A DNA stretch of 64,000 nucleotides from Escherichia coli (GTDB lineage Bacteria; Pseudomonadota; Gammaproteobacteria; Enterobacterales; Enterobacteriaceae), in NCBI RefSeq assembly GCF_044324785.1, contig NZ_CP172127.1; one strand, written 5' to 3'. This document shows positions 9,048 through 59,037 of the stretch, one piece after another. The translations under genes were made by a program, and so were the position numbers. How positions within the stretch are numbered: position 1 is the first letter of the stretch; every line of letters begins with the position of its first letter. A model generated the notes under the pieces. The model did not search any database. It was not told where the DNA came from and saw only the letters and a list, made by a program, of their open reading frames with translations.

Positions 9048-9399
9048 AGTTACCTTCTGTAGATACGAATTGTTGTATCGCAGAAGATTCCATGTCGACA
9101 GCGGTACACTCAATTGGTTGGGCCATCATGTACGACAATGGTTCCTGTAAAGAGTGTAAAGACTAGTCAGGACATAACCACGAGGAGCATGAATGCGGTG
9201 GCTCTACTTTATCACTGGCTGACTGCTTTCAGCTACTGATTATTAATCGTGCAAAGTAAATATTTTTCCGCACGCAATAGCGTTGCATTTAACGTGCTGT
9301 TTTCATTGATGCTTAGCAAAAATTGCCAGAGGTTAAGGATTGTCTTACTATTAAAGTGACTGAAGTTACAGGTTTTTTAGCGCGGCAGGAGGTTGAGCT

Positions 9400-9642
9400 A
9401 TGATTTATTTATGGATGTTTCTCGCCCTGTGTATTGTCTGCGTAAGCGGCTACATTGGTCAGGTCCTGAACGTGGTATCGGCGGTCTCTTCTTTCTTCGG
9501 CATGGTGATCCTCGCTGCACTCATTTATTACTTCACCATGTGGTTAACTGGCGGTAATGAACTGGTGACGGGGATATTTATGTTTCTTGCCCCGGCTTGT
9601 GGCTTGATGATTCGCTTTATGGTGGGGTATGGCAGGCGCTAG
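9400..9642 (+). CDS. yfdY: small inner membrane protein YfdY
   Basis: 80-aa hydrophobic ORF in the expected position between lpxP and ypdI. Confidence 0.75.
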   Translation: MIYLWMFLALCIVCVSGYIGQVLNVVSAVSSFFGMVILAALIYYFTMWLTGGNELVTGIFMFLAPACGLMIRFMVGYGRR

Positions 9643-11183: not shown

Positions 11184-11446
11184 TAACATCACAAATGTCG
11201 CGGCTCTCTCTGATTACCGCGAACCAATATTTATCATATTCTTCTTTTCGTCCTCACTACTTACCATGCAGAAAGGAATTGGAAGTGGCGATGAAATGAT
11301 TATCAGCACTTGATACAGGAATTTAAAAATATCGAGTGCAGCTACGACGATATTTTGCGGATTATTTATAGAGAGCGTTATGCCTTAAATAAACGCTAAA
11401 TTAACATATATTTAATTAACTAATAGGTATTGCTATGTCAACTCCA

Positions 11447-11455
11447 CTTCAAGGA
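11447..11455. repeat. 9-bp target site duplication (left copy) of the IS903 insertion
   Basis: CTTCAAGGA immediately left of the IS, identical to 12513-12521. Confidence 0.9.
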
Positions 11456-11473
11456 GGCTTTGTTGAATAAATC
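11456..11473. repeat. IS903 terminal inverted repeat (transposase-distal end)
   Basis: GGCTTTGTTGAATAAATC, perfect reverse complement of 12495-12512. Confidence 0.9.
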
Positions 11474-11511
11474 AGATTTCGGGTAAGTCTCCCCCGTAGC
11501 GGGTTGTGTTT

Positions 11512-12435
11512 TCAGGCAATACGCACGCTTTCAGGCATACCTGCTTTCGTCATTTTGTTCAGCGCTCGTACCAGGGCCATAGCCTCCGCAACCTGACCAT
11601 CGTAGTCACGCAGCGTCAGTGAACCCCCGAACAGCTGTTTTACCCGGTACATCGCCGTTTCCGCTATCGAGCGACGGTTGTAATCTGTTGTCCATTTCCA
11701 CCGCGCATTACTCCCGGTCATTCGCTGATTAGCCACTGCACGGTTACGGTCTGCATATTCACCGGGCCAGTAACCCGCACCTTTTCGGGGAGGGATAAGC
11801 GCGCTGATTTTCTTACGCCGCAGTTCATCGTGACATAGCCGGGTATCGTAAGCGCCATCGGCGGCGGCTGACCTGATTTTCCGGTGGGTTTGCCGGATTA
11901 ACCCGGGGAAGGCCTCTGAGTCCGTAACGTTGTTCAGCGACAGGTCAGCGCAGATGATTTCATGTGTTTTACTGTCAACGGCGAGATGCAGCTTACGCCA
12001 GATACGGCGGCGTTCCTGGCCATGCTTTTTGACTTTCCACTCGCCTTCACCGAAGACCTTCAGCCCGGTGGAATCAATTACCAGGTGTGCGATTTCACCC
12101 CGGGTGGGCGTTTTGAAACTGACATTAACCGACTTTGCCCGCCTGCTGACACAGCTGTAATCCGGGCAGCGTAGCGGAACGTTCATCAGAGAAAAAATGG
12201 AATCAATAAAGCCCTGCGCAGCCCGCAGGGTCAGCCTGAATACGCGTTTAATGACCAGCACAGTAGTGATGGCAAGGTCAGAATAGCGCTGAGGTCTGCC
12301 TCGTGAAGAAGGTGTTGCTGACTCATACCAGGCCTGAATAGCTTCATCATCCAGCCAGAAAGTTATGGAGCCACGGTTGATGAGGGCTTTATTGTAGGTG
12401 GGCCAGTTGGTGATTTTGAACTTTTGCTTTGCCAC
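11512..12435 (-). CDS. IS903 transposase (DDE, IS5 family)
   Basis: Translation ...AKQKFKITNWPTYNKALINRGSITFWLDDEAIQAWYE...MPESVRIA matches the IS903 transposase; likely GTG start at 12435 gives 307 aa, whereas the track ORF begins at an upstream in-frame ATG at 12480. Confidence 0.9.
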   Translation of the reverse strand: MAKQKFKITNWPTYNKALINRGSITFWLDDEAIQAWYESATPSSRGRPQRYSDLAITTVLVIKRVFRLTLRAAQGFIDSIFSLMNVPLRCPDYSCVSRRAKSVNVSFKTPTRGEIAHLVIDSTGLKVFGEGEWKVKKHGQERRRIWRKLHLAVDSKTHEIICADLSLNNVTDSEAFPGLIRQTHRKIRSAAADGAYDTRLCHDELRRKKISALIPPRKGAGYWPGEYADRNRAVANQRMTGSNARWKWTTDYNRRSIAETAMYRVKQLFGGSLTLRDYDGQVAEAMALVRALNKMTKAGMPESVRIA

Positions 12436-12494
12436 GGAACGGTCTGCGTTGTCGGGAAGATACGTGATCTGATCCTTCAACTCAGCAAAAGTTC

Positions 12495-12512
12495 GATTTA
12501 TTCAACAAAGCC
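12495..12512. repeat. IS903 terminal inverted repeat (transposase-proximal end)
   Basis: GATTTATTCAACAAAGCC, reverse complement of 11456-11473. Confidence 0.9.
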
Positions 12513-12521
12513 CTTCAAGGA
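12513..12521. repeat. 9-bp target site duplication (right copy) of the IS903 insertion
   Basis: CTTCAAGGA identical to 11447-11455; a 9-bp duplication is what I recall for IS903. Confidence 0.9.
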
Positions 12522-13804
12522 ATTAAAGTTCTCGATTTCACCGGTGTGCAATCTGGCCCATCTTGTACTCAGATGCTGGCCTGGTTTGGCGCTGACGTCA
12601 TTAAAATTGAACGTCCCGGCGTTGGTGACGTAACGCGTCACCAGCTGCGAGATATTCCTGATATCGATGCGCTTTACTTCACCATGCTTAACAGTAACAA
12701 ACGTTCTATTGAATTAAATACCAAAACAGCGGAAGGCAAAGAGGTAATGGAAAAGCTGATCCGCGAAGCTGATATCTTAGTCGAGAACTTTCATCCAGGG
12801 GCCATTGATCACATGGGCTTCACCTGGGAGCATATTCAAGAAATCAATCCACGTCTGATTTTTGGTTCGATCAAAGGGTTTGATGAGTGTTCGCCTTATG
12901 TGAATGTAAAAGCCTATGAAAACGTTGCTCAGGCAGCGGGTGGTGCGGCATCCACTACAGGTTTTTGGGACGGCCCGCCGCTGGTAAGCGCTGCAGCGTT
13001 GGGTGACAGCAACACCGGAATGCATTTGCTGATCGGTTTACTTGCTGCTTTGCTGCATCGCGAAAAAACGGGGCGTGGGCAACGAGTTACCATGTCAATG
13101 CAGGATGCCGTGTTGAACCTTTGCCGCGTGAAATTACGCGACCAGCAGCGTCTCGATAAGTTGGGGTATCTGGAAGAATACCCGCAGTATCCGAATGGCA
13201 CATTTGGTGATGCAGTTCCCCGCGGTGGTAATGCGGGTGGTGGCGGTCAGCCTGGCTGGATCCTGAAATGTAAAGGCTGGGAAACCGATCCTAATGCCTA
13301 TATTTATTTCACTATTCAGGAGCAAAACTGGGAAAACACCTGTAAAGCTATCGGCAAACCAGAATGGATTACCGATCCGGCATATAGTACAGCTCATGCC
13401 CGACAGCCACATATTTTCGATATTTTTGCTGAAATCGAAAAATACACTGTCACTATTGATAAACATGAAGCGGTGGCCTATTTGACTCAGTTTGATATTC
13501 CTTGTGCACCGGTTTTAAGTATGAAAGAAATTTCACTTGATCCCTCTTTGCGCCAAAGTGGCAGTGTTGTCGAAGTGGAACAACCGTTGCGTGGAAAATA
13601 TCTGACAGTTGGTTGTCCAATGAAATTCTCTGCCTTTACGCCGGATATTAAAGCTGCGCCGCTATTAGGTGAACATACCGCTGCTGTATTGCAGGAGTTG
13701 GGTTATAGCGACGATGAAATTGCTGCAATGAAGCAAAACCACGCCATCTGATATTAACGGGGGCTTCTGGCTCCCAATTTATAAAAATTTCGAGGTTATT
13801 AATC

Positions 13805-38724: not shown

Positions 38725-38926
38725 GAAGGTCAAAGCTATATGAATCCGCGCTGAATGGCGGAGTGTTGCTCAAAATGTAAACGCATATTGACTATACTTA
38801 CGCCATTGAGGTAAAAAACAGCGTTTCATTCGGTGAATGGATAAGGCACAATGCCGGCCACCGTTTTCTTTCTCTGGTTTCAGATGAAAGAAAACGGGCG
38901 AATCTGGTTAACAAAAGCGGTGCAAT

Positions 38927-39412
38927 ATGCAAGTTTTTATCATGCGTCACGGCGACGCAGCCCTCGATGCCGCCAGTGATTCGGTTCGTCCTCTGACTAC
39001 TAACGGTTGTGATGAATCTCGCCTGATGGCGAACTGGCTGAAAGGTCAAAAAGTGGAAATCGAACGCGTTCTGGTGAGCCCGTTCCTGCGAGCCGAGCAA
39101 ACACTGGAAGAAGTAGGGGATTGTCTGAACCTGCCTTCCAGTGCAGAAGTTCTGCCGGAGTTAACGCCCTGCGGCGATGTTGGTCTGGTCAGTGCCTATT
39201 TACAGGCGTTGACCAATGAAGGTGTTGCTTCGGTACTGGTGATCTCCCACTTACCCTTAGTCGGGTATCTGGTTGCTGAGTTATGTCCGGGCGAAACGCC
39301 GCCTATGTTTACCACCTCGGCCATTGCCAGCGTAACGCTTGATGAAAGCGGAAACGGCACATTCAACTGGCAGATGAGCCCATGTAATCTGAAGATGGCA
39401 AAGGCGATTTAA
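38927..39412 (+). CDS. sixA: phosphohistidine phosphatase SixA
   Basis: 161-aa ORF MQVFIMRHGDA... with the RHG phosphatase motif; recognised as SixA. Confidence 0.93.
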   Translation: MQVFIMRHGDAALDAASDSVRPLTTNGCDESRLMANWLKGQKVEIERVLVSPFLRAEQTLEEVGDCLNLPSSAEVLPELTPCGDVGLVSAYLQALTNEGVASVLVISHLPLVGYLVAELCPGETPPMFTTSAIASVTLDESGNGTFNWQMSPCNLKMAKAI

Positions 39413-39423
39413 TACGCATGCAC

Positions 39424-39460
39424 AAGGCCCGCTGGCGTAAGCTATCGGGCCTTTATTTTT
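39424..39460 (+). terminator. intrinsic terminator downstream of sixA
   Basis: AAGGCCCG (39424-39431), loop, CGGGCCTT (39446-39453), then TATTTTT. Confidence 0.75.
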
Positions 39461-40072
39461 CTGGCAATGTTGAATTTATTCAATCTTATTGTACTAATAA
39501 TGATCCGCTTGTGATCGAATGGTCTTTATTTTATACGGCATGACGCTTTTATTCGTGAGAATTTACATATTGAAAGAGAATTTACTTTTATTCATAAATT
39601 ATTTTTTCTGGAAGCATTTTTAGGTAAATAATGACTAAGGTGAAAATATTATTGGGTCTTGATTTTATATTAATTATAGTGTTTTAATATTATATCGTTG
39701 CGAAATTAATATCACAAGATAGTCATTGCCATGTGATTGTTTTTGACTTTGATTTATTCACTGTATTTTTGCATTTGCCGTTTTTTTGAACTCATTCTTC
39801 ATAACTGAGATGAAAAATTTCAGTAATTATTATTCCTGCCTATTAATTAAGTATTTCTAACTTTGAATGTTAGAAAATCTAAATTGCTTCAGTCATATTA
39901 AAATATCAATATGTTCGGCACGCCAAAGAATATTGATTCAAGGGACCTGTTTTTTCAGGATCTGAAAATATGTTCATTGGCTGGTTAAAAGTCGCTGCAA
40001 AAAATTGAAGAAGTTCTGCGTCAATATTTCAGTTGGCTTATATTCTAATTATTTATGATTTAAGGACAAATA

Positions 40073-40639
40073 ATGAGTAAGTTTGTAAAAGCAGCAGTTG
40101 CCACGGCAATGCTTATGGGGGCGCTGACTTCAGCATCAGTCGTTGCCGCAGGGAATAACGGTACAGTGAGATTTTACGGCACAATTGAAGACTCCCCGTG
40201 CTCAATTGTTCCTGACGATCATAAACTGGAAGTGGATATGGGCAGCATCGGTACGGGTTCTTTAACCGGCGGCAAAAAAACCACACCAAAAGATTTCCAG
40301 ATTCGTTTACAGGACTGTAATTTCAATACAGAAACGACAATGTCCACCACATTTACCGGTAATCCATACTCCACTAAAACAGATAACTATTCTTTGTCTA
40401 ACATGGATAATGGAACTGAAATTCCAAACGTTAGCCTGGTTATCGGTGACCAGCACGGTACAGGTTATGCTATGGGAGCAGAGATTAAGCAACCTATCGT
40501 GAAGGACAGTTCAACGGGAAAAGGCAAGCCTAAACAAACTCTGAACTTTAAAGCATGGTTAGTGGGTGAAACGGATGCTGTAACACCAACACCGGCACCG
40601 TTTGAAACGCTGACGACGTTCCAAATCACGTATCTCTAA
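40073..40639 (+). CDS. yfcV: fimbrial major subunit-like protein (Yfc chaperone-usher fimbriae)
   Basis: 188-aa ORF with signal peptide and pilin-like C-terminus; first gene of the yfc operon. Confidence 0.85.
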   Translation: MSKFVKAAVATAMLMGALTSASVVAAGNNGTVRFYGTIEDSPCSIVPDDHKLEVDMGSIGTGSLTGGKKTTPKDFQIRLQDCNFNTETTMSTTFTGNPYSTKTDNYSLSNMDNGTEIPNVSLVIGDQHGTGYAMGAEIKQPIVKDSSTGKGKPKQTLNFKAWLVGETDAVTPTPAPFETLTTFQITYL

Positions 40640-40710
40640 TGTATTTCCCCCATAGCTGCAAAGTTATGGGGTTTATAACTACCAAATAACTAAATTATAA
40701 AAAATCATGG

Positions 40711-43362
40711 ATGGATACGCCGATGCCAGAACATTCTTTTCTCCGTTTACGGGGGCTTTCGTGGTGGATTGCTCTGGCAATTTCTGGAAGTCCATTTAAT
40801 GCCCTGGCAGACGATACCATTCAGTTTGATGGCCGATTTCTTGATTTAAAAGGCAATACCAAAATTGATTTGGGCCGTTTTTCGCAAAAAGGCTATGTAG
40901 AACCGGGAAAATATAACTTACGCGTTCATGTAAATAATCAGCCGTTACCTGACGACTACGATATCTACTGGTACGCAACTGAAAACGATCCGAATAAATC
41001 ATATGCCTGCTTATCGCCAGAGCTGGTTGCCCAGTTTGGTCTGAAGGAAGATATTGCGAAGAATTTGCAATGGATCCGCGATGGTCAGTGTCTGAATACG
41101 GCACTTTTAGCAGGTACAGAAATTAGCGGCGATTTAGGCCAGTCTGCACTCCTTGTTTCTGTACCGCAGGCTTATCTGGAATATACCGACAGCGAGTGGG
41201 ACCCGCCTTCGCGCTGGGATGACGGTATCCCTGGGCTTATTGCCGATTACAGTATCAACGCGCAAACCCGACATGAAAATGGGGGTGATGACACCAACGA
41301 CATCAGCGGTAATGGTACGGTCGGCGTTAACGTTGGGCCGTGGCGCTTACGAGCTGACTGGCAGAGCGATTATCAGCATACCCGCAGTAACGATGACGGC
41401 GACACTGACGATAGCGGTACGCAAAAAAACTGGGAGTGGAGTCGTTACTACGCCTGGCGCGCCTTGCCGTCATTAAAAGCCAAACTTTCGCTGGGCGAAG
41501 ATTACCTCAACTCCGATATTTTTGATGGCTTCAGTTACATTGGCGGCAGCATCAGTACCGATGATCAAATGTTACCGCCAAACCTGCGCGGCTACGCACC
41601 CGATATTTCAGGCGTTGCACACACTACTGCTAAAGTGACTGTAACCCAAATGGGCCGTGTCATTTACGAAACTCAGGTGCCCGCAGGTCCATTCCGCATC
41701 CAGGATATTGGCGACTCCGTCTCTGGCACGCTGCATGTCCGCATTGAAGAACAAAACGGCCAGGTACAGGAATACGACGTCAGCACGGCGTCCATGCCGT
41801 TCCTGACTCGCCCCGGCCAGGTGCGTTACAAAGTGACAATGGGGCGTCCACAAAACTGGGACCATCAGGTTGCAGGTAGCTTCTTCTCGGGCGGCGAGGC
41901 ATCGTGGGGGATTGCCAATGGCTGGTCGCTCTACGGCGGTGCGTTAGCCGATGAAAACTACCAGTCGGCGGCGCTGGGCCTCGGTCGTGACCTGGCGCTG
42001 CTAGGCGCGTTAGCGTTTGATGTCACTCACTCTCGTGTTCAACTCGACGATAACAGCGTGTATGGCAACAAAACGCTGGACGGCAACTCTTATCGCGTCA
42101 GCTATGCCAAAGATTTTGATGAACTCAACAGTCGGGTGACGTTTGCTGGATACCGCTTCTCTGAAAAAAACTACATGACCATGAGCGAGTATCTGGATGC
42201 GAACGACGACGACCGGGCGCGCACCGGTAACGACAAAGAGATGTATACGGTCACCTATAACCAGAACTTCACGGATGCGCGCGTTTCGGTCTATCTCAAC
42301 TATTCCCACCATACCTACTGGGATCGCCAGGATCAGACCAACTACAACATGATGCTTTCTCATTATTTCAATTTAGGAAGCCTTCGCAACCTGAGCGTTT
42401 CTCTGACCGGTTATCGCTACGAATACGATAAAAGTGCCGACAAGGGTGTTTATCTGTCCTTAAGTTTGCCGTGGGGCGACAACAGCACCATCAGTTACAA
42501 CGGCAACTATGGCAGCGGTGCCGACAGCAATCAGGTGAGCCTGTACCACCGCATTGATGACGCCAGCCACTACACGGTAAGCGCCGGAACCAGCGAAAAC
42601 CACAGCAGCGTGGATGGCTACTACAGCCACGATGGTACTCTGGCAAAAGTTGATCTCAGTGCCAACTACCATGAAGGGCAATACACCTCAGCGGGGATCT
42701 CTTTACAGGGCGGGGCAACGTTGACCGCTCACGGCGGGGCGCTGCATCGTACACAAAACATGGGCGGTACACGTCTGTTAATCGACGCTGATGGCGTTGC
42801 TAATGTGCCGGTTGAAGGTAATGGTTCCGCCGTTTATACCAACATGTTCGGCAAAGCGGTGGTGGCTGATGTGAATGATTACTACCGCAACCAGGCTTAT
42901 ATCGATTTGAACAAACTGCCGGAAAACGCCGAAGCCACGAAATCAGTGGTTCAGGCAACGCTGACGGAAGGCGCTATTGGCTACCGTAAATTTGCGGTGA
43001 TCAGCGGTGAGAAGGCGATGGCAGTGCTGCGCTTGCAGGATGGCAGCCATCCGCCATTTGGGGCGGAAGTGAAAAACGATAATCAACAACAAGTTGGATT
43101 AGTTGATGACGAAGGTAATGTTTATCTGGCAGGCGTTAAACCGGGTGAACATATGACCGTTTTCTGGGAGGGTGAATCTCACTGCGATATCAGCCTGCCA
43201 GACCCGTTACCGAATGACCTGTTCAATGGCTTGTTGTTGCCATGCCAGCAAAAGGGGGGAAGTGCTCCCGTCATACCGCATGATATTCAACCCGTCATTC
43301 AGGAGCAGACACAACAGGTGACACCAATGGAACCGCCGATGTCTGTTTCATCGAACCAATAA
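40711..43362 (+). CDS. yfcU: fimbrial outer membrane usher, apparently intact
   Basis: Uninterrupted 883-aa ORF of usher size; true start may be the internal Met at codon 5. Confidence 0.85.
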   Translation: MDTPMPEHSFLRLRGLSWWIALAISGSPFNALADDTIQFDGRFLDLKGNTKIDLGRFSQKGYVEPGKYNLRVHVNNQPLPDDYDIYWYATENDPNKSYACLSPELVAQFGLKEDIAKNLQWIRDGQCLNTALLAGTEISGDLGQSALLVSVPQAYLEYTDSEWDPPSRWDDGIPGLIADYSINAQTRHENGGDDTNDISGNGTVGVNVGPWRLRADWQSDYQHTRSNDDGDTDDSGTQKNWEWSRYYAWRALPSLKAKLSLGEDYLNSDIFDGFSYIGGSISTDDQMLPPNLRGYAPDISGVAHTTAKVTVTQMGRVIYETQVPAGPFRIQDIGDSVSGTLHVRIEEQNGQVQEYDVSTASMPFLTRPGQVRYKVTMGRPQNWDHQVAGSFFSGGEASWGIANGWSLYGGALADENYQSAALGLGRDLALLGALAFDVTHSRVQLDDNSVYGNKTLDGNSYRVSYAKDFDELNSRVTFAGYRFSEKNYMTMSEYLDANDDDRARTGNDKEMYTVTYNQNFTDARVSVYLNYSHHTYWDRQDQTNYNMMLSHYFNLGSLRNLSVSLTGYRYEYDKSADKGVYLSLSLPWGDNSTISYNGNYGSGADSNQVSLYHRIDDASHYTVSAGTSENHSSVDGYYSHDGTLAKVDLSANYHEGQYTSAGISLQGGATLTAHGGALHRTQNMGGTRLLIDADGVANVPVEGNGSAVYTNMFGKAVVADVNDYYRNQAYIDLNKLPENAEATKSVVQATLTEGAIGYRKFAVISGEKAMAVLRLQDGSHPPFGAEVKNDNQQQVGLVDDEGNVYLAGVKPGEHMTVFWEGESHCDISLPDPLPNDLFNGLLLPCQQKGGSAPVIPHDIQPVIQEQTQQVTPMEPPMSVSSNQ

Positions 43363-43381
43363 CGTGATTAAGGAATGATCC

Positions 43382-44131
43382 ATGACTAAATATCTCTCTG
43401 CCAAAACATTGACAACGGTACTGTCGTTACTGGCAGCAACGGTAAGTTTTTCTACCCAGGCGTCAGTAACGCCCGATCGTACTCGCCTGATTTTTAATGA
43501 AAGCGATAAATCCATCAGCGTGACGCTGCGTAATAACGACCCAAAACTGCCTTATCTGGCGCAAAGCTGGATTGAAGATGAAAAGGGCGTCAAAATCAGC
43601 TCGCCGCTGGCGGTATTGCCGCCCGTACAGCGCATTGATGCAATGATGAATGGTCAGGTAAAAATTCAGGGCCTGCCGGATATTCATAAATTACCTGCCG
43701 ATCGGGAATCGATGTTCTATTTCAACGTGCGCGAAATTCCGCCGAAATCGAACAAATCCAACACGCTACAAATCGCTCTTCAGACGCGTATCAAACTTTT
43801 CTGGCGACCGAAAGCTCTGGAAAAAAACACCACGCAAAACCCGTGGCAGCATAAAGTGACCTTAACCCGCAACGGTCAGGAATTTACTGTCAATAACCCG
43901 ACGCCGTATTACGTCATTTTCAGTAATGCCAGCGCACAGAAAAATGGCAATCCGGCAGCCGGTTTCTCGCCAATAGTGATGTCGCCGAAAACCTCTGCAC
44001 CGCTGAATGTGAAGATGGGTAGCGTGCCGGTACTGACCTATGTCAACGACTATGGCGCTCGGATGCCGCTCTTTTTCACCTGCAACGGCAATAGTTGCCA
44101 GGTTGATGAAGAGCAGAGCCGCAAAGGCTGA
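43382..44131 (+). CDS. yfcS: periplasmic fimbrial chaperone (PapD-like)
   Basis: 249-aa ORF with signal peptide; position after the usher gene. Confidence 0.88.
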   Translation: MTKYLSAKTLTTVLSLLAATVSFSTQASVTPDRTRLIFNESDKSISVTLRNNDPKLPYLAQSWIEDEKGVKISSPLAVLPPVQRIDAMMNGQVKIQGLPDIHKLPADRESMFYFNVREIPPKSNKSNTLQIALQTRIKLFWRPKALEKNTTQNPWQHKVTLTRNGQEFTVNNPTPYYVIFSNASAQKNGNPAAGFSPIVMSPKTSAPLNVKMGSVPVLTYVNDYGARMPLFFTCNGNSCQVDEEQSRKG

Positions 44132-44146
44132 GGCCGGGAGTGTGAG

Positions 44147-44638
44147 ATGAAACGACTACTTTTGACCGGGCTGGGAGGAGTGCTGCTTACGGGCAGTGCT
44201 CTTGCCGGTGAAACGAAAAGTGTGCCATTGACATTGCGCGTACTGGTAGACCCACCACCTCCTTGTACCGTAAAAGGCAGTAACGTCGATTTTGGTGATG
44301 TGATCATCAAAAAAATCAATGGTACTGAATATCGCAAAGATGCAGGTTATACCCTGAACTGTGCCAATAGCCTGAGCGATGACCTTCAGATGCAGTTTAA
44401 GGGCACAACCACCACGATCAATGGCGAAACGGTGTTAAGCACGGGAATTACCGGGTTTGGCATTCGTATTGAAAATGCAGCAGATAACTCTCTGTTTGCG
44501 ATTGGCGACAATACCTGGACTCCATTTAGCGTCAGTAGCCAGCCACAACTAAAAGCAGTGCCAGTCAAACAGAATGGCGTGACGCTGACAGGCGCGCAGT
44601 TTAACGCCAGCATGACAATGGTGGTGGATTACCAATGA
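44147..44638 (+). CDS. yfcR: fimbrial minor subunit-like protein
   Basis: 163-aa secreted ORF with C-terminal VDYQ pilin-like strand. Confidence 0.8.
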   Translation: MKRLLLTGLGGVLLTGSALAGETKSVPLTLRVLVDPPPPCTVKGSNVDFGDVIIKKINGTEYRKDAGYTLNCANSLSDDLQMQFKGTTTTINGETVLSTGITGFGIRIENAADNSLFAIGDNTWTPFSVSSQPQLKAVPVKQNGVTLTGAQFNASMTMVVDYQ

Positions 44639-45114
44639 AACGACTCTCGTTAATTTTATTATCCGCTTTTTGCACCATAACGCATGCCGCACCGGAAGAT
44701 ATCACCTTCACGGGTACGCTGATCGAACCTCCGGTCTGCACCGTCAGCAATGGTGATGATATTGAGATCCAGTTTATCGACGTCATTATCGACAATATTG
44801 ACGGGGTTAATTACCGCAAAGATGTTCCGTACCAGATAACGTGTGACCCTGATATTACCGATGACGCCTGGGTAATGACGCTAACCTGGACCGGTACACA
44901 GACCAGCTATAACGATGCGGCGATTCAGACGGATGTGACGGGTTTAGGGATTGAACTCCAGCAAAACGGTCAGCCCTTTAAGCTGAATACCCCGCTTAAC
45001 GTGACACCCGCCAACCTGCCGAAGTTGAAGGCCGCACCTGTAAAAGCTTCCGATGCCACGCTGACTGACGGTAACTTTTCCGCTTACGCCACATTGCAGG
45101 TGGATTATCAATGA
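44635..45114 (+). CDS. yfcQ: fimbrial minor subunit-like protein
   Basis: 159-aa secreted ORF ending in LQVDYQ; 4-bp overlap with yfcR. Confidence 0.8.
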   Translation: MKRLSLILLSAFCTITHAAPEDITFTGTLIEPPVCTVSNGDDIEIQFIDVIIDNIDGVNYRKDVPYQITCDPDITDDAWVMTLTWTGTQTSYNDAAIQTDVTGLGIELQQNGQPFKLNTPLNVTPANLPKLKAAPVKASDATLTDGNFSAYATLQVDYQ

Positions 45115-45656
45115 ACAAACTGAAGAAATATCAACGTATCAGGGTGCATACCCTTCTGTTAGGAGGCGTGCTGGTGCTGGCAAGTCATTCAGCTCTGGCT
45201 GCTAATAATCTGCATTTTTACGGCAACCTGATGAGCAAAACCTGTACTCCGGTGGAACAGGCTGGAACGTTGGCAGAGGTGCAGTTTGCGAATATTAGCC
45301 ACAAAGATTTGATGGTGCGCGGTCAGTCCGAGCGTGTACCGGTGGTTTTTCGCCTGAAAGATTGCCGCGGGCCAGCGCAGTACAGCGTAAAAGTTACCCT
45401 GACCGGAACAGAAGACAGTGGACAACCGGGGTTCCTCGCTCTGGATGGTACCTCTGGCGCACAGGGCGTAGGCATTGGTATGGAAACTACTGATGGTACT
45501 GCTGTTGCTATTAATAACACGACGGGGGTGACCTTTGTGCTGAATGATGGCAATAACAGTCTTAATTTCAGAGCATGGTTACAGGCAAAAGAGGGTCGTG
45601 AAGTAACGCCCGGTGATTTTACCGCCCAGTTAACCGCAACGTTTGAGTATATTTAA
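45111..45656 (+). CDS. yfcP: fimbrial subunit-like protein
   Basis: 181-aa secreted ORF; 4-bp overlap with yfcQ. Confidence 0.8.
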   Translation: MNKLKKYQRIRVHTLLLGGVLVLASHSALAANNLHFYGNLMSKTCTPVEQAGTLAEVQFANISHKDLMVRGQSERVPVVFRLKDCRGPAQYSVKVTLTGTEDSGQPGFLALDGTSGAQGVGIGMETTDGTAVAINNTTGVTFVLNDGNNSLNFRAWLQAKEGREVTPGDFTAQLTATFEYI

Positions 45657-46520
45657 ATGAAAAAAATACGCTATTTTTGGGGCTTGCTGATATTGCTCAT
45701 TGTCAGTACCGGAGCACAGGCGTCGGTTTATGTCGCAACAATGTATACACCGGTAGGGTATGCAGGCCACACTACGAAGGTAGTTTATTATCTTGATGTT
45801 CTTACCCCCGATAGCGTCAATCATGGTATTTATGCGACACCCGGTACCTACGGTGCGGTCATGGGGTGGTTAGATTTGCAAAGCTGGACGGGGCCTGGTC
45901 CTGCACCATCATTAAAGGTCATATCGATGACGGAGATATCCAAATCATCTTGCCCGGGGCTTGCAGAGTATGACAATGGTGCACAAAGGACGATCTGGAC
46001 GTGTTATGAGATGCAAATTGAAGTCTGGAAAGAAGACACTAACGTTCATGGCTGCCCGTGGCTGGTATCGACACATGGAGACAGCATTGATCGTCTTGAT
46101 CCCGGTCCGGGAACCTATTCCGGACGCACAGTCAGTAACTCTTCTTGTCCACCTATACCGTTAGGGCCTTATGATGTCTCCTGGAATGAAAGTCGGGTTG
46201 TGCGTGATAAGACGTTAGCGCTCCAGTCTACCGGCGGGATAATTGAAAAAACGCTCTCCACCTACCTGATGAAAGACGGCAAACTGTGTGACGGCAGCAA
46301 ATTTGGTGATACTGACGATCGTGGTGCTTATTGTCGTTGGGTGTCGCAGATGCTCACCTTCACCTCATCGGGCTGTGACAATGCCAAAGTGACGGTAACA
46401 CCAAATCGTCACCCCATTACCGACAAAGAGCTTCATGATATGGTGCTTCGCGTGGATACCACCTCGCGGCAACCTATTGATTCTACCTGTCGATTCCAGT
46501 ACGTACTGAATATGCTGTAG
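45657..46520 (+). CDS. yfcO: fimbrial tip adhesin-like protein (putative)
   Basis: 287-aa secreted, Cys-containing ORF, last gene of the cluster; adhesin role is inferred from position only. Confidence 0.7.
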   Translation: MKKIRYFWGLLILLIVSTGAQASVYVATMYTPVGYAGHTTKVVYYLDVLTPDSVNHGIYATPGTYGAVMGWLDLQSWTGPGPAPSLKVISMTEISKSSCPGLAEYDNGAQRTIWTCYEMQIEVWKEDTNVHGCPWLVSTHGDSIDRLDPGPGTYSGRTVSNSSCPPIPLGPYDVSWNESRVVRDKTLALQSTGGIIEKTLSTYLMKDGKLCDGSKFGDTDDRGAYCRWVSQMLTFTSSGCDNAKVTVTPNRHPITDKELHDMVLRVDTTSRQPIDSTCRFQYVLNML

Positions 46521-46542
46521 TAGCTCGTCGTTGTGCACTGAT

Positions 46543-46644
46543 GCCTGATGCGACGCTGACGCGTCTTATCAGGCCTAAGAAATGAATCACAATTTATTGA
46601 ATTATCACATTTTATCGGCCGGATAAGGCAACGCCGCATCCGGC
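46543..46644. repeat. REP (repetitive extragenic palindromic) elements between yfcO and smrB
   Basis: GCCTGATGCGACGCTGACGCGTCTTATCAGGCC and GCCGGATAAGGCAACGCCGCATCCGGC are typical E. coli REP palindromic units. Confidence 0.8.
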
Positions 46645-46659
46645 ATTCAATGCCAGCAT

Positions 46660-47211
46660 TCACGGTAATTCCGGCGGCAACCACTCATCCACTTCAATCA
46701 ACACCAGCAATGCCGCATCACCACCGTACTCTTTTGGTGCCTGGTGAAATGCCATCACATGCGGATGCTGCGCCAGCCACAGCGGCGTTTGCTGCTTCAA
46801 AATATGCTTCCCATGACCATGCATCACGCAGGCACAAAACACATGTTCGCGGCGGCAGGCAGCAATCAATGCGCCTAATTCCTGCTTGGCTTGCAGCTGC
46901 GTCAAACCGTGCAAATCCAAAAACAGCTCCGGTGAATAATCGCCACGGCGTAACTTCTTCGCCTCAAAATGGCTTACATCCGGGCGAACATATTTCACCG
47001 GACCTTCGGTATTCAATAACGGCTGAAACTCATCGGAAAAATAATGGCTGGCATCAGCCTGCTCCTGAATCAACCGTTTAACCGGCACTTCGCTGACTTT
47101 TTTACGCTGCGGTCGGTGGACAATCGTGTCCTGCTTAATCTTGCGAGTCCCCGCCATCAACTGGCGAAACAGAGCCTGGTCCTCCTCGCTAAGTGTTGTT
47201 TTCTTTTTCAT
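46660..47211 (-). CDS. smrB: ribosome rescue endonuclease SmrB (Smr domain)
   Basis: 183-aa ORF recognised as YfcN/SmrB. Confidence 0.88.
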
Positions 47212-47364
47212 TTATGTGTCTCTATTTCTAATTTTCCTACAGTTTACCCGACTCGTAGCGCAATCGATCGTTTTAAACGTATTTTTCCTCACTCACCGCG
47301 CGTGAATGCTGATTTATCGTCATCTTCATGGCAAACTAGCCGCCGAAATTATTGCGATCATGCC

Positions 47365-48309
47365 CTGGAGGAATACGTGGATAAAATTTTCGTTGATGAA
47401 GCAGTAAATGAGCTGCAAACCATTCAGGACATGTTGCGCTGGTCGGTGAGCCGCTTCAGCGCGGCAAATATCTGGTACGGTCACGGCACCGATAACCCGT
47501 GGGATGAAGCCGTACAGCTGGTGTTGCCTTCGCTCTACCTGCCGCTGGATATTCCGGAAGACATGCGCACCGCGCGTCTGACCTCCAGCGAAAAACACCG
47601 TATTGTTGAGCGCGTGATCCGCCGCGTCAATGAACGCATTCCGGTGGCTTACCTGACTAACAAAGCGTGGTTCTGCGGTCATGAATTTTACGTCGATGAA
47701 CGTGTGCTGGTGCCGCGCTCGCCGATTGGTGAACTGATCAACAATAAATTTGCCGGACTTATCAGCAAGCAACCGCAGCACATTCTGGATATGTGCACCG
47801 GAAGCGGCTGCATTGCGATTGCCTGTGCTTATGCCTTCCCGGAAGCGGAAGTCGACGCGGTAGATATCTCTCCCGACGCGCTGGTGGTGGCTGAACAGAA
47901 CATCGAAGAACACGGTCTGATCCACAACGTCATCCCGATTCGCTCCGATCTGTTCCGTGATTTGCCGAAAGTACAGTACGACCTGATCGTCACTAACCCG
48001 CCGTACGTCGATGCGGAAGATATGTCCGACCTGCCAAATGAATACCGCCACGAGCCGGAACTGGGCCTGGCATCTGGCACCGACGGCCTGAAACTGACGC
48101 GTCGCATTCTCGGTAACGCGGCAGATTACCTCGCTGATGATGGCGTGCTGATTTGTGAAGTGGGCAACAGCATGGTACATCTTATGGAACAATATCCGGA
48201 TGTTCCGTTCACCTGGCTGGAGTTTGATAACGGCGGCGATGGTGTGTTTATGCTCACCAAAGAGCAACTGCTGGCGGCCCGTGAACATTTCGCGATTTAT
48301 AAAGATTAA
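47365..48309 (+). CDS. prmB: ribosomal protein uL3 glutamine N5-methyltransferase
   Basis: Track ORF 47044-48309 contains PrmB; probable GTG start at 47365 ([14 protein letters not shown]...); methyltransferase motif (D)VTNPPY present; exact start uncertain. Confidence 0.88.
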
Positions 48310-48343
48310 GTAAACACGCAAACACAACAATAACGGAGCCGTG

Positions 48344-49429
48344 ATGGCTGGAAACACAATTGGACAACTCTTTCGCGTAACCACCTTCGGCGAATCGCAC
48401 GGGCTGGCGCTCGGCTGCATCGTCGATGGTGTTCCGCCAGGCATTCCGCTCACGGAAGCGGACCTGCAACATGACCTCGACCGTCGTCGCCCTGGGACAT
48501 CGCGCTATACCACCCAGCGCCGCGAGCCGGATCAGGTCAAAATACTCTCCGGTGTTTTTGAAGGTGTTACTACTGGTACCAGCATTGGCTTGTTGATCGA
48601 AAATACCGACCAGCGTTCTCAGGATTACAGCGCCATTAAAGACGTTTTCCGTCCAGGCCATGCCGATTACACCTACGAACAAAAATACGGCCTGCGAGAT
48701 TATCGCGGCGGTGGACGTTCTTCCGCCCGCGAAACCGCCATGCGCGTGGCGGCGGGGGCGATTGCCAAAAAATATCTCGCCGAGAAATTTGGCATTGAGA
48801 TTCGCGGCTGCCTGACCCAGATGGGCGACATTCCGCTGGAAATCAAAGACTGGTCGCAGGTCGAGCAAAATCCATTCTTCTGCCCGGACCCGGACAAAAT
48901 CGACGCGTTAGATGAACTGATGCGCGCGCTGAAAAAAGAGGGCGACTCCATCGGTGCGAAAGTCACCGTTGTTGCCAGTGGCGTCCCCGCCGGACTTGGC
49001 GAGCCGGTCTTTGACCGCCTGGATGCCGACATCGCCCATGCGCTGATGAGCATCAATGCGGTGAAAGGCGTGGAAATTGGTGATGGTTTTGACGTGGTGG
49101 CGCTGCGCGGCAGCCAGAATCGCGACGAAATCACCAAAGACGGTTTCCAGAGCAACCACGCAGGCGGCATTCTCGGCGGTATCAGCAGCGGGCAGCAAAT
49201 CATTGCTCATATGGCGCTGAAACCGACCTCCAGCATTACCGTGCCGGGGCGTACCATTAACCGCTTTGGCGAAGAAGTTGAGATGATCACCAAAGGCCGT
49301 CACGATCCTTGTGTCGGGATCCGCGCGGTGCCGATCGCTGAAGCGATGCTGGCGATCGTTTTAATGGATCACCTGCTACGGCAGCGGGCGCAAAATGCCG
49401 ATGTGAAGACTGATATTCCACGCTGGTAA
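48344..49429 (+). CDS. aroC: chorismate synthase
   Basis: [23 protein letters not shown]... recognised as AroC (361 aa from the second Met). Confidence 0.95.
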
Positions 49430-49432
49430 AAA

Positions 49433-50257
49433 ATGAACAAAACCGCGATTGCGCTGCTGGCCCTGCTTGCCAGTAGCGCCAGCCTGGCAGCGACGCCGTG
49501 GCAAAAAATAACCCAACCTGTGCTGGGTAGCGCACAATCGATAGGCAGTTTTTCTAATGGTTGTATCGTCGGCGCTGACACGCTGCCGATACAGTCCGAA
49601 CATTATCAGGTCATGCGTACCGATCAGCGTCGCTATTTCGGACACCCGGATCTGGTGATGTTTATCCAGCGTCTGAGTAGCCAGGTGAGCAATCTGGGCA
49701 TGGGGACGGTGCTGATTGGCGATATGGGGATGCCTGCTGGTGGGCGTTTCAACGGCGGTCACGCCAGCCACCAGACCGGACTGGATGTCGATATCTTCCT
49801 GCAACTGCCAAAAACACGCTGGACCTCCGCGCAGCTATTGCGCCCACAAGCGTTAGATTTAGTTTCCCGCGACGGTAAACACGTTGTCTCCACGCTGTGG
49901 AAGCCGGAAATTTTCAGCTTGATCAAACTCGCCGCCCAGGACAAAGACGTCACGCGCATTTTTGTTAATCCGGCGATTAAACAACAACTTTGCCTTGATG
50001 CGGGCACCGATCGCGACTGGTTGCGCAAAGTGCGACCCTGGTTCCAGCATCGTGCGCATATGCATGTACGATTACGTTGTCCTGCCGATAGTCTGGAGTG
50101 TGAAGATCAACCTTTACCGCCACCGGGCGATGGTTGCGGGGCAGAACTGCAAAGCTGGTTTGAACCTCCAAAACCGGGAACAACAAAGCCTGAGAAGAAG
50201 ACACCGCCTCCGTTGCCGCCTTCCTGCCAGGCGCTACTGGATGAGCACGTGATCTAA
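49433..50257 (+). CDS. mepA: penicillin-insensitive murein DD-endopeptidase
   Basis: 274-aa ORF with signal peptide; recognised as MepA. Confidence 0.93.
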
Positions 50258-51066
50258 TGGAAACGTTTAATAGCCTGTTTATGGTTTCCCCGCTGTTGCT
50301 GGGAGTTCTCTTTTTTGTCGCCATGCTGGCGGGATTTATCGACTCGATTGCCGGTGGCGGTGGGTTACTCACTATTCCGGCATTGATGGCGGCGGGGATG
50401 TCTCCCGCTAACGCGCTGGCAACCAATAAACTGCAAGCCTGCGGCGGCTCTATTTCTGCCACTATCTACTTTATTCGCCGCAAAGTGGTTAGTTTAAGCG
50501 ATCAGAAACTCAATATCGCCATGACCTTTGTCGGCTCAATGAGCGGCGCATTGCTGGTGCAATACGTTCAGGCTGATGTCTTACGGCAGATTTTGCCCAT
50601 TCTGGTGATTTGTATCGGCCTCTATTTCTTGCTGATGCCAAAGCTGGGTGAAGAAGATCGCCAGCGCCGGATGTACGGTTTACCCTTCGCGTTAATTGCC
50701 GGTGGCTGCGTCGGTTTTTATGACGGATTCTTTGGCCCGGCTGCCGGATCGTTTTACGCGCTGGCCTTCGTTACGCTGTGCGGATTCAACCTCGCCAAAG
50801 CCACGGCTCATGCCAAATTACTCAACGCAACGTCAAACATTGGCGGTCTGCTGCTGTTTATTCTCGGTGGCAAAGTGATTTGGGCGACGGGCTTTGTCAT
50901 GCTGGTGGGGCAATTCCTCGGCGCGCGCATGGGTTCACGACTGGTGTTGAGCAAAGGACAAAAGCTGATCCGCCCGATGATCGTTATTGTCTCAGCGGTG
51001 ATGAGTGCAAAATTACTTTACGATAGCCACGGACAGGAGATCCTCCACTGGTTGGGGATGAACTAA
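50257..51066 (+). CDS. yfcA: TSUP/TauE-family inner membrane protein
   Basis: 269-aa polytopic ORF; start overlaps the mepA stop. Confidence 0.88.
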   Translation: METFNSLFMVSPLLLGVLFFVAMLAGFIDSIAGGGGLLTIPALMAAGMSPANALATNKLQACGGSISATIYFIRRKVVSLSDQKLNIAMTFVGSMSGALLVQYVQADVLRQILPILVICIGLYFLLMPKLGEEDRQRRMYGLPFALIAGGCVGFYDGFFGPAAGSFYALAFVTLCGFNLAKATAHAKLLNATSNIGGLLLFILGGKVIWATGFVMLVGQFLGARMGSRLVLSKGQKLIRPMIVIVSAVMSAKLLYDSHGQEILHWLGMN

Positions 51067-51614
51067 TGAACAGTACACACCACTATGAGCAGTTGATTGA
51101 GATTTTTAATAGCTGCTTTGCCGATGAATTTAATACCCGTCTGATTAAAGGCGACGACGAACCGATCTATCTTCCTGCTGATGCGGAAGTACCGTATAAC
51201 CGAATCGTCTTTGCTCATGGCTTTTATGCCAGCGCAATTCATGAGATTTCGCACTGGTGTATTGCCGGGAAAGCGCGTCGTGAGCAGATTGATTTCGGGT
51301 ACTGGTATTGCCCGGACGGACGCGATGCCCAGACGCAAAGCCAGTTTGAAGATGTTGAAGTGAAGCCGCAGGCGCTCGACTGGTTGTTCTGTGTGGCGGC
51401 GGGATATCCGTTTAACGTCAGTTGCGACAATCTGGAAGGGGATTTCGAACCGGATCGCGTGGTGTTTCAACGGCGGGTATATGCGCAGGTGATGGATTAT
51501 CTGGAAAACGGCATTCCTGAACGCCCGGCACGCTTCATTAAAGCATTACAAAATTATTATCACACGCCGGAAATTACGGCGGAACAGTTCCCGTGGCCGG
51601 AAGCGCTCAACTGA
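51066..51614 (+). CDS. epmC: elongation factor P hydroxylase
   Basis: 182-aa ORF recognised as YfcM/EpmC. Confidence 0.9.
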   Translation: MNSTHHYEQLIEIFNSCFADEFNTRLIKGDDEPIYLPADAEVPYNRIVFAHGFYASAIHEISHWCIAGKARREQIDFGYWYCPDGRDAQTQSQFEDVEVKPQALDWLFCVAAGYPFNVSCDNLEGDFEPDRVVFQRRVYAQVMDYLENGIPERPARFIKALQNYYHTPEITAEQFPWPEALN

Positions 51615-51647
51615 AGCCGGCGCCACGTTTTACAATGAGGAAAGAAG

Positions 51648-51926
51648 ATGATCGCGGAGTTTGAATCACGCATTCTGGCATTAATCGACGGTATGGTTGA
51701 CCATGCCAGTGATGATGAGTTGTTTGCCAGTGGGTATTTGCGTGGCCACCTGACATTAGCCATCGCAGAACTGGAAAGTGGTGATGACCACTCCGCTCAG
51801 GCGGTACATACAACCGTTAGCCAGAGTCTGGAAAAAGCCATTGGTGCCGGTGAGTTGTCGCCGCGTGACCAGGCGCTGGTGACCGATATGTGGGAAAACC
51901 TGTTTCAGCAGGCGTCACAGCAGTAA
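51648..51926 (+). CDS. yfcL: uncharacterised protein YfcL
   Basis: 92-aa ORF in the conserved position after epmC. Confidence 0.85.
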
Positions 51927-51932
51927 GTAATG

Positions 51933-51964
51933 TGCCGGATAAGGCGTTCACGCCATATCCGGCA
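51933..51964. repeat. REP element between convergent yfcL and mnmC
   Basis: TGCCGGATAAGGCGTTCACGCCATATCCGGCA, a canonical REP palindrome. Confidence 0.8.
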
Positions 51965-51981
51965 AGCAATGCCAGAGCAGA

Positions 51982-54054
<2,073 letters not shown>

Positions 54055-54146
54055 CTATTAATTGGCTGATCGGACTTGTTCGGCGTACAAGTGTACGCTA
54101 TTGTGCATTCGAAACTTACTCTATGTGCGACTTACAGAGGTATTGA

Positions 54147-55367
54147 ATGAAACGTGCAGTGATTACTGGCCTGGGCATTGTTTCCAGCATCGGTAATAAC
54201 CAGCAGGAAGTCCTGGCATCTCTGCGTGAAGGACGTTCAGGGATCACTTTCTCTCAGGAGCTGAAGGATTCCGGCATGCGTAGCCACGTCTGGGGCAACG
54301 TAAAACTGGATACCACTGGCCTCATTGACCGCAAAGTTGTGCGCTTTATGAGCGACGCATCCATTTATGCATTCCTTTCTATGGAGCAGGCAATTGCAGA
54401 TGCTGGCCTCTCCCCGGAAGCTTACCAGAATAACCCGCGCGTTGGCCTGATTGCAGGTTCCGGCGGCGGTTCCCCGCGTTTCCAGGTTTTCGGCGCTGAC
54501 GCAATGCGCGGCCCGCGCGGCCTGAAAGCGGTTGGCCCGTATGTGGTCACCAAAGCGATGGCATCTGGCGTTTCTGCCTGCCTCGCCACGCCGTTTAAAA
54601 TTCACGGCGTTAACTACTCCATCAGCTCCGCGTGTGCGACCTCCGCACACTGTATCGGTAACGCAGTAGAGCAGATCCAACTGGGCAAACAGGACATCGT
54701 GTTTGCTGGTGGCGGCGAAGAATTGTGCTGGGAAATGGCTTGCGAATTCGACGCAATGGGCGCGCTGTCTACCAAATACAACGACACCCCGGAAAAAGCC
54801 TCCCGTACTTATGACGCTCACCGTGACGGTTTCGTTATCGCTGGCGGCGGCGGTATGGTGGTGGTCGAAGAACTGGAACACGCGTTGGCGCGTGGTGCTC
54901 ATATCTACGCTGAAATCGTTGGCTACGGCGCAACGTCTGATGGCGCAGACATGGTTGCTCCGTCTGGCGAAGGCGCAGTGCGTTGCATGAAGATGGCGAT
55001 GCACGGTGTTGATACCCCAATCGACTACCTGAACTCCCACGGTACTTCGACTCCGGTTGGCGACGTGAAAGAGCTGGCGGCTATCCGTGAAGTGTTCGGC
55101 GATAAGAGCCCGGCGATTTCTGCAACCAAAGCCATGACCGGTCACTCTCTGGGCGCTGCTGGCGTACAGGAAGCTATCTACTCTCTGCTGATGCTGGAAC
55201 ACGGCTTTATCGCCCCGAGCATCAACATTGAAGAGCTGGACGAGCAGGCTGCGGGTCTGAACATCGTGACCGAAACGACCGATCGCGAACTGACCACCGT
55301 GATGTCTAACAGCTTCGGCTTCGGCGGCACCAACGCCACGCTGGTAATGCGTAAGCTGAAAGATTAA
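54147..55367 (+). CDS. fabB: 3-oxoacyl-ACP synthase I
   Basis: 406-aa [25 protein letters not shown]... recognised as FabB. Confidence 0.96.
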
Positions 55368-55375
55368 TTCGGAGT

Positions 55376-55410
55376 AGGTCGGATAGGACGCGTCAGCGTC
55401 GCATCCGACG
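55376..55410. repeat. REP-like palindromic element downstream of fabB
   Basis: AGGTCGGATAGGACGCGTCAGCGTCGCATCCGACG, similar to the REP unit at 46543. Confidence 0.65.
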
Positions 55411-55445
55411 ATATGCGGCAATGCTGCCTCCGGTACTAAAGAATA

Positions 55446-55472
55446 AGGGAACCTGATGGTTCCCTTTTTCAC
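55446..55472 (+). terminator. intrinsic terminator downstream of fabB
   Basis: AGGGAACC-TGAT-GGTTCCCT followed by TTTTTC. Confidence 0.85.
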
Positions 55473-55628
55473 ATTATTGACAATCGCCGCCTGTTCCAGG
55501 CAAACTTCCCGCTTTGTCGATTTCCTTCTGAAAAGACGTACGCGTTAAATCCTGCCAACGCACCGTAACCCTGAAACCAGAGAGATGAGACGGGGATACT
55601 CCTCGCCTTGCGCTGCATTCTGGAGTAA

Positions 55629-57802
<2,174 letters not shown>

Positions 57803-57900
57803 TACGTATCCTTATACCTGAAATCTTCGCAAGTATGCCTGGCCGCGAGATTATGGCACACTTGTCCGGTTAACTCTCGTCTCATACAGGTAACACAAAC

Positions 57901-59037
57901 GTGAAAATCCTTGTTGATGAAAATATGCCTTATGCCCGCGACTTATTTAGCCGTTTGGGTGAGGTGACCGCGGTTCCCGGGCGTCCAATCCCCGTCGCTC
58001 AACTGGCAGACGCGGATGCGCTGATGGTGCGTTCGGTCACGAAAGTGAATGAATCTTTGCTGGCAGGAAAACCCATTAAATTTGTTGGCACTGCCACCGC
58101 GGGGACCGACCATGTCGATGAAGCGTGGTTAAAGCAGGCGGGAATTGGTTTTTCCGCGGCACCTGGCTGTAATGCGATTGCGGTGGTGGAATATGTTTTC
58201 TCCTCACTGCTGATGCTTGCCGAACGCGATGGATTTTCACTGCACGAGCGTACCGTGGGGATCGTGGGCGTTGGTAACGTTGGTCGCCGTTTACAGGCGC
58301 GACTGGAAGCGTTAGGGATTACAACCTTGCTTTGCGATCCGCCTCGCGCCGACCGTGGGGATGAGGGGGATTTCCGCTCGCTGGATGAATTAGTTCAGCA
58401 TGCGGATATTCTGACTTTCCATACGCCACTCTTTAAAGATGGTCCGTACAAAACGCTGCATCTGGCGGATGAAAAACTGATCCGCAACCTGAAACCGGGA
58501 GCGATCCTGATTAACGCCTGCCGTGGCGCAGTCGTCGATAATACCGCCCTGCTGACCTGCCTGAACGAAGGCCAGAAGTTAAGCGTAGTGCTGGATGTCT
58601 GGGAAGGCGAACCGGAACTTAACGTGGAATTGCTGAAAAAAGTGGATATCGGCACGCCGCATATCGCAGGCTATACCCTGGAAGGTAAAGCACGCGGAAC
58701 TACGCAAGTGTTTGAAGCTTATAGCAAGTTTATTGGGCATGAACAACACGTTGCGCTGGATACGTTGCTGCCCGCGCCAGAGTTTGGCCGCATTACGCTG
58801 CATGGTCCGCTCGATCAACCGACGCTGAAAAGGCTGGTGCATTTGGTGTATGATGTGCGCCGCGATGACGCACCGCTGCGTAAAGTCGCCGGAATACCGG
58901 GTGAGTTCGATAAGCTGCGCAAAAACTATCTTGAGCGCCGTGAATGGTCATCTCTGTATGTAATTTGTGATGACGCCAGCGCGGCATCATTGCTGTGTAA
59001 ACTGGGTTTTAACGCCGTTCATCATCCGGCACGTTAA
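57901..59037 (+). CDS. pdxB: erythronate-4-phosphate dehydrogenase
   Basis: 378-aa [25 protein letters not shown]... recognised as PdxB. Confidence 0.95.

Follow-up and report, generated by a model that had tools for sequence, protein, structure and literature searches.

A Pap-like chaperone-usher operon with an intact usher gene at the yfc site of Escherichia coli: likely a distinct allele class from that of K-12

Yfc is a core-associated chaperone-usher fimbrial cluster of Escherichia coli, and the sole such cluster intact in every genome surveyed by Wurpel et al. (PMC3559732). Secondary citations call the over-expressed Yfc system of K-12 “cryptic but functional” (PMC3559732, PMC6033998). 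The cluster is listed as pi-type, and in E. coli W and O157:H7 the sixA-yfcN site holds another pi-type cluster of seven genes (Archer et al. 2011, PMC3032704). The yfc genes show unusually high nucleotide diversity, and their phylogenies disagree with the tree based on multilocus sequence typing (Ren et al., PMC4850163). The present work concerns a stretch of 64,000 nucleotides of E. coli DNA (contig NZ_CP172127.1, RefSeq assembly GCF_044324785.1), here referred to as the window, and a yfc-type operon at positions 40073-46520 within it. With a probability of roughly 0.9, this region is an intact Pap-like (pi-class) chaperone-usher operon, orthologous by position and by family to yfc of E. coli and stf of Salmonella, and a member of an allele class distinct from that of K-12.

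The operon consists of seven uninterrupted open reading frames (ORFs), all located on the + strand and free from internal stops, as a previous examination of the letters without database searches (the sequence-only reading) had reported. The short gaps and 4-bp overlaps noted at the time are present: the spacing in order is 71, 19 and 15 nt, two overlaps of 4 nt and one direct abutment. The Pfam domain set of a chaperone-usher system is complete, with four Fimbrial domains, PapC_N, Usher and PapC_C, PapD_N and PapD_C, and DUF2544. Signal peptides can be read from the translations of all seven products, and each of the four pilins has an alternating-hydrophobic N-terminal extension (GTVRFYGTI in the major pilin) and a Cys pair. 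Each gene is as long as its counterpart in the nearest relatives, N3, E2348/69 and W13-16. The operon is flanked by sixA (38927-39412) on one side and by the convergent smrB, also named yfcN (46660-47211, − strand), on the other, which is the yfc site; the identical pair of flanks is found in K-12, UTI89, an O157-type strain and E2348/69. By this position and by an usher of the NCBIfam NF011812 subfamily, the operon belongs to the Yfc fimbrial type as defined by Wurpel et al. (2013). Within the window-type class, the ratio of non-synonymous to synonymous substitution rates (dN/dS) is 0.02-0.31 for six of the genes and 0.30-0.53 for yfcO, the fastest-evolving of them. These low values indicate that the operon genes are under purifying selection.

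A close counterpart is the P pilus of uropathogenic E. coli (UPEC), whose layout the operon shares: the major pilin comes first, followed by the usher, the chaperone, the minor pilins of the tip and, last, a distal adhesin. PapC (739 bits) and PapD (205 bits) are the top matches among solved structures, above FimD (277 bits) and FimC (94 bits), and membership of the pi clade is assigned by this proxy of bit scores rather than from a tree. The usher aligns with PapC chain 7lhg_C (E = 6.8e-221, residues 2-806 of 809 covered) and spans the Pfam models PapC_N (1-146 of 146), Usher (3-549 of 549) and PapC_C (3-61 of 66). The chaperone matches PapD with E = 9e-60; Arg8, Lys112 and the C-terminal Cys pair are kept, and the motifs DRTR and IKLF(W/Y)RP are conserved. 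Unlike the P pilus system, the operon has no PapI/PapB regulators and no PapH-like terminator, and its DUF2544 tip protein is unrelated in sequence to PapG.

The fimbrial cluster Stf of Salmonella enterica (stfACDEFGH) provides the best NCBIfam models. These are StfA for the major pilin, StfE, StfF and StfG for the minor pilins R, Q and P (letters follow the yfc gene names), and StfD; the last gene is of the StfH/YfcO family. Every one of these scores lies far under its equivalog cut-off (132 of 267 bits for StfA, 339 of 447 for StfD, 153 of 264 for StfE, 168 of 253 for StfF and 150 of 253 for StfG), so the window proteins are homologues of the Stf proteins and not equivalogs. The alternative cluster of E. 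coli W and O157:H7, known as “eso/epo”, is a precedent for other seven-gene pi-type clusters at the yfc site. It represents another allele class, as the proteins of the O157-type locus are only 52-81% identical to those of the window.

The usher had been described as an intact protein of 883 amino acids. It is indeed intact and full-length; the length itself is probably 879 amino acids. The NF011812 model (YfcU/StfC subfamily; 1794 bits, with the curated cut-off at 972) aligns with residues 5-883, orthologues in N3, E2348/69 and W13-16 are annotated by the NCBI pipeline PGAP from the second in-frame ATG, and the K-12 yfcU reading frame aligns from the same second Met. These three observations make a start at 40723 the likelier one.

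The usher gene of K-12 MG1655 had been described as a disrupted pseudogene, and RefSeq annotates it as such, with an “internal stop”. The proposed alignment of yfcU to the K-12 locus, together with translation, places the lesion at a single amber codon (TAC>TAG, codon 579 of 881; 6415-6417 of the K-12 locus), a nonsense change with no frameshift. The matching codon in the window is TAT, for Tyr (Table 1). K-12 yfcU is thus truly disrupted, and neither a frameshift nor a premature stop occurs in any yfc gene of the window; the sequence-only interpretation, by which this strain may be capable of assembling Yfc fimbriae, is supported to that extent. The yfcU pseudogene is not mentioned in PMC8174762.

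The defect of the K-12 usher is a nonsense mutation private to the K-12 lineage. Codon 579 is TAC in the phylogroup-A strain WCHEC050613 and in BL21. WCHEC050613 has YfcV, YfcS and YfcR proteins identical to those of K-12, yet its usher is intact at 881 amino acids; the usher is likewise intact in close relatives and in BL21. Exact matches to a 61-mer centred on the TAG occur in 363 of 5,426 complete genomes; eight of these were sampled and are mostly K-12 or laboratory-derived. A further 2,674 genomes match the 61-mer with at least one mismatch. Given this limited occurrence, the intact relatives and the survey cited above (PMC3559732), an intact operon is the ordinary and expected state. The intactness of the window operon is in itself of low significance, since E. 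coli carries an intact yfc-type operon by default and the pseudogene of K-12 is known as an oddity of a laboratory lineage.

The amber codon sits oddly with the “cryptic but functional” label given to K-12 Yfc; amber read-through, suppressor backgrounds or a truncated usher are candidate explanations. Sporadic decay of the operon among strains also occurs. WCHEC050613 has an IS1 element inside its yfcQ-equivalent gene (5223-6001 of its locus), and one further genome has an usher interrupted by IS1. The major-pilin gene of UTI89 is flagged as partial by RefSeq (9048-9611 of the UTI89 locus).

A reading implicit in the report of an intact usher is that the window operon is the K-12 operon with an unbroken usher gene, one repaired gene apart. 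The flanking genes, the gene order and the number of genes are all K-12-like, as are the usher subfamily and a hairpin that follows the major-pilin gene. The sequences themselves refute this reading, to which virtually no credence can be given. SixA is 100% identical to its K-12 counterpart, whereas the operon products are 66% (V), 81% (U), 84% (S), 64% (R), 62% (Q), 65% (P) and 52% (O) identical. The synonymous divergence (dS) from K-12 is 1.0-1.9 or saturated in the operon against 0.11 in sixA, and the R-Q-P-O half and the upstream region cannot be aligned to K-12 by megablast. Nor is the allele that of UTI89, with 73% identity in YfcV and 55% in YfcO. The name “Yfc” given to the operon in the sequence-only reading stands by position and by usher family, but with proteins only 52-84% identical to those of K-12 it does not extend to the allele, be it the K-12 one or that of the CFT073 “yfcV” marker. 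Judged from these sequences, the operon would build a fimbria antigenically, and probably also functionally, unlike K-12 Yfc.

The extent of the divergent segment is evident from a DNA identity profile of 9.7-kb loci aligned with MAFFT in fast mode and scored in 200-nt windows. Immediately past the sixA stop codon (39400), identity to K-12, UTI89 and the O157-type strain drops from 94-100% to 36-60%, and across the cassette it ranges from about 45 to 84%. It returns to at least 87% only inside the 3′ end of smrB, at about 46800. The last 250 nt or so of smrB (46660-46900) are 74-91% identical to the other allele classes, with at least 95% further in, and this depressed identity places the right-hand recombination boundary inside smrB. 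The region upstream of the major pilin is part of the replaced cassette of 7.2 kb. It is unalignable (36-60%) to K-12, UTI89 and the O157-type strain, 94-98% identical to SCU-171 and 100% identical to N3.

The allele class itself is not new, as strains sequenced earlier carry it, the enteropathogenic E. coli (EPEC) strain E2348/69 among them, and alternative allele classes at sixA-smrB are a phenomenon already known in outline. Of the 5,426 complete genomes, 240 (about 4%) contain the full window-type operon and 237 contain the R-Q-P-O half; the class is shared by E2348/69 and some 237 further complete genomes of E. coli. The best match is strain N3 at 99.7%, and the window and N3 form their own sub-lineage. 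E2348/69 is close in the usher (99.7% protein identity, dN/dS 0.02), the chaperone (99.2%), R and Q (99.4%), the major pilin (96%) and P (96%), and differs in the tip protein YfcO, at only 85%. The major pilin is identical (100%) in N3.

The sharp boundaries of the cassette could also be explained if it had recently been acquired horizontally from some other enterobacterial species, in place of being an old allele class of E. coli. Such an origin would suit the dS to other E. coli alleles, which equals or exceeds the level seen between E. coli and Salmonella, and also the occurrence of the YfcO family in E. albertii, E. fergusonii, E. ruysiae and Pseudocitrobacter. This origin is nonetheless unlikely. 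The close relatives of the tip protein (79-96%) that have a named source are all from E. coli, the rest coming from metagenome or sequencing-run assemblies, and the next tier of YfcO proteins is only 57-58% identical. In addition, the window-type class has diversified within E. coli (82.9-99.9% nucleotide identity in yfcO and in the R-Q-P-O module). In SCU-171, the promoter-V-U-S half is window-like (91.5-95% at the protein level) and the R-Q-P-O half is unrelated (51-60%), a combination that shows modular recombination at the locus. This diversification and exchange of modules within the species point to a long residence in E. coli.

An old E. coli allele class remains the likelier origin of the cassette. 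It is tentatively suggested, at somewhat less than even odds, that sixA-smrB is a locus of hypervariable fimbrial cassettes. Several ancient allele classes, saturated in synonymous divergence and each with its own regulatory region, would exist there; they would be reshuffled in two or more modules (promoter-V-U-S and R-Q-P-O) and kept by selection, balancing or diversifying, that acts on the specificity for receptors or on antigenic specificity. In the DUF2544 tip protein, whose fold has no solved relative, the N-terminal half may, with the same reservation, be the fastest-evolving part. If this is true, the receptor specificity of the window fimbria differs from that of both K-12 Yfc and UPEC Yfc. 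The widely used “yfcV” marker of UPEC would then detect one allele class of a core locus and not the presence of the operon.

The identity of the tip protein is 79-96% within its own class and at most 58% to everything else, and its dN/dS of 0.53 against E2348/69 is the highest in the operon. Across 37 members of the family, a hypervariable N-terminal half is followed by a conserved C-terminal half, with eight invariant Cys residues. The AlphaFold2 (AF2) model of the window protein consists of two beta-sandwich domains, with a confidence score (pLDDT) of 80.8. In a public protein collection, a search yielded 173 distinct clusters of the StfH/YfcO family at 90% identity; the named ones are mostly from Escherichia, with a few from Pseudocitrobacter. 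A yfcO mutant of avian pathogenic E. coli (APEC) is reportedly less adherent, as cited in PMC8069529. From the operon position, the pattern of variability and this cited mutant, it is plausible that the tip protein is a two-domain adhesin.

A mechanism for the assembly of the fimbria can be proposed. Sec would export the subunits, and the PapD-like chaperone would bind them by donor-strand complementation. The chaperone would then hand them to the PapC-like usher, where donor-strand exchange would polymerise a fibre of the YfcV-like major pilin. This fibre is predicted to end in a short tip formed by the three minor pilins, with the DUF2544 YfcO-family protein as distal adhesin.

The ratio of the products is probably under the control of a hairpin located directly after the major-pilin gene (Table 1). 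The 83-nt stretch at 40630-40712 folds with −16.6 kcal/mol (z = −2.4), and the hairpin is kept in the K-12, O157-type, SCU-171 and E2348/69 alleles despite the divergence around it. An excess of pilin over usher is usual in chaperone-usher operons. The hairpin is probably a partial terminator or attenuator, or an element of mRNA stability, that sets the pilin to usher ratio and would hold the pilin in excess.

Expression of the operon may be restricted by its upstream region, in which the GC content is 28% at 39500-39999. The operon is probably silent in laboratory conditions owing to this AT-rich sequence, which may be subject to H-NS-type repression. Scans for the sigma-70 and terminator consensus gave counts not above those of shuffled sequence, and no promoter is claimed. 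The upstream region has no ORF of more than 41 amino acids, and the locus contains no regulator gene. An Rfam scan of 38800-47400 returned no match. A phase-variable invertible switch was also considered and rejected: the upstream region holds only weak AT-rich inverted repeats (17 nt, 82% match, 443 nt apart) of the kind expected by chance, and there is no recombinase nearby.

A stricter form of silence is that the ORFs are intact and the operon is dead or permanently silent, through loss of a promoter or activator or through a missense defect, such that fimbriae are never produced. The sigma-70 signal at chance level and the lack of a dedicated regulator are compatible with this, as is the fact that Yfc has been called cryptic in K-12 (PMC3559732). 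Such a fate is quite improbable, however, when set against the purifying selection seen within the class on all seven genes (for example, the usher value against E2348/69 given above) and the conservation of the key chaperone residues and of the attenuator hairpin. A dead operon would gather lesions, as seen in K-12 yfcU and in the copies interrupted by IS1.

Table 1. Coordinates of the fimbrial operon and associated features in the window
Feature	Position	Strand	Remarks
Intergenic (regulatory) region upstream of major pilin	39413..40072	+	660 nt, AT-rich, allele-type-specific
sixA terminator hairpin	39424..39453		
Major pilin (YfcV/StfA-like)	40073..40639	+	188 aa; Pfam Fimbrial 1.6e-17
10-bp hairpin CCCCAUAGCU/AGUUAUGGGG then UUUAU	40648..40676	+	directly 3′ of major-pilin stop codon
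Outer-membrane usher (YfcU-type, PapC-like)	40723..43362	+	probably 879 aa; maximal ORF 40711-43362 = 883 aa
Tyr codon TAT matching the K-12 yfcU amber position	42451..42453	+	codon alignment
Periplasmic chaperone (YfcS-type, PapD-like)	43382..44131	+	249 aa; PapD_N + PapD_C
Minor pilin (YfcR/StfE-like)	44147..44638	+	163 aa; Pfam Fimbrial
Minor pilin (YfcQ/StfF-like)	44635..45114	+	159 aa; Pfam Fimbrial
Minor pilin (YfcP/StfG-like)	45111..45656	+	181 aa; Pfam Fimbrial
StfH/YfcO-family (DUF2544) presumed tip adhesin	45657..46520	+	287 aa; DUF2544 3e-73
Two inverted repetitive extragenic palindromic (REP) elements (bacterial interspersed mosaic element, BIME)	46543..46650	.	between operon end and convergent smrB; read from sequence

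The practical consequence of these comparisons lies in the naming. Gene names derived from K-12 hide subunits and an adhesin that are only 52-66% identical to those of K-12, and because of this distance, phenotypes, antibodies and polymerase chain reaction (PCR) markers from K-12 or UPEC Yfc should not be presumed valid here. The locus is of mild interest in one respect only: the sixA-smrB cassette and its DUF2544 tip protein show an allelic diversity that is both deep and modular. It offers a clean natural case in which a core fimbrial site has had its whole cassette replaced by another allele, one that could be mined for receptor diversity.

Several further observations concern the surroundings of the operon. 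The REP/BIME sequence that follows it has a 36-nt exact copy elsewhere in E. coli. The housekeeping flanks (1-24000 and 46700-58000) are only 96-98% identical to each of the 5,426 complete E. coli genomes. Identity peaks at 97.9% for the left flank and at 98.7% for the right flank (N3), and no genome attains 99% along the full length. An origin outside E. coli was considered and rejected on these values: the window is E. coli in a broad sense and comes from a deep-branching, poorly sampled lineage of the species.

The argW gene for tRNA-Arg(CCU) is located at 29160-29234, separated from the dsdC end by only about 100 nt (region 29060-29234), which indicates that the argW integration hotspot is empty. 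In the closest relative, N3, the interval between dsdC and the tRNA gene holds an ipuA/ipuB-upaE island and a P4-like satellite that includes an integrase. The dsdA gene is intact in the window (25221-26552) and frameshifted in N3.

An IS903-family element of 1,057 bp (11456-12512) is inserted after codon 7 of frc, the gene for formyl-CoA transferase of oxalate-dependent acid resistance, and this insertion disrupts frc in the strain. The element has 18-nt inverted repeats (11456-11473 and 12495-12512) and a transposase ORF at 11512-12480 on the − strand. It is bordered by a 9-bp target duplication, CTTCAAGGA, with the two parts of frc at approximately 11435-11455 and 12513-13751.

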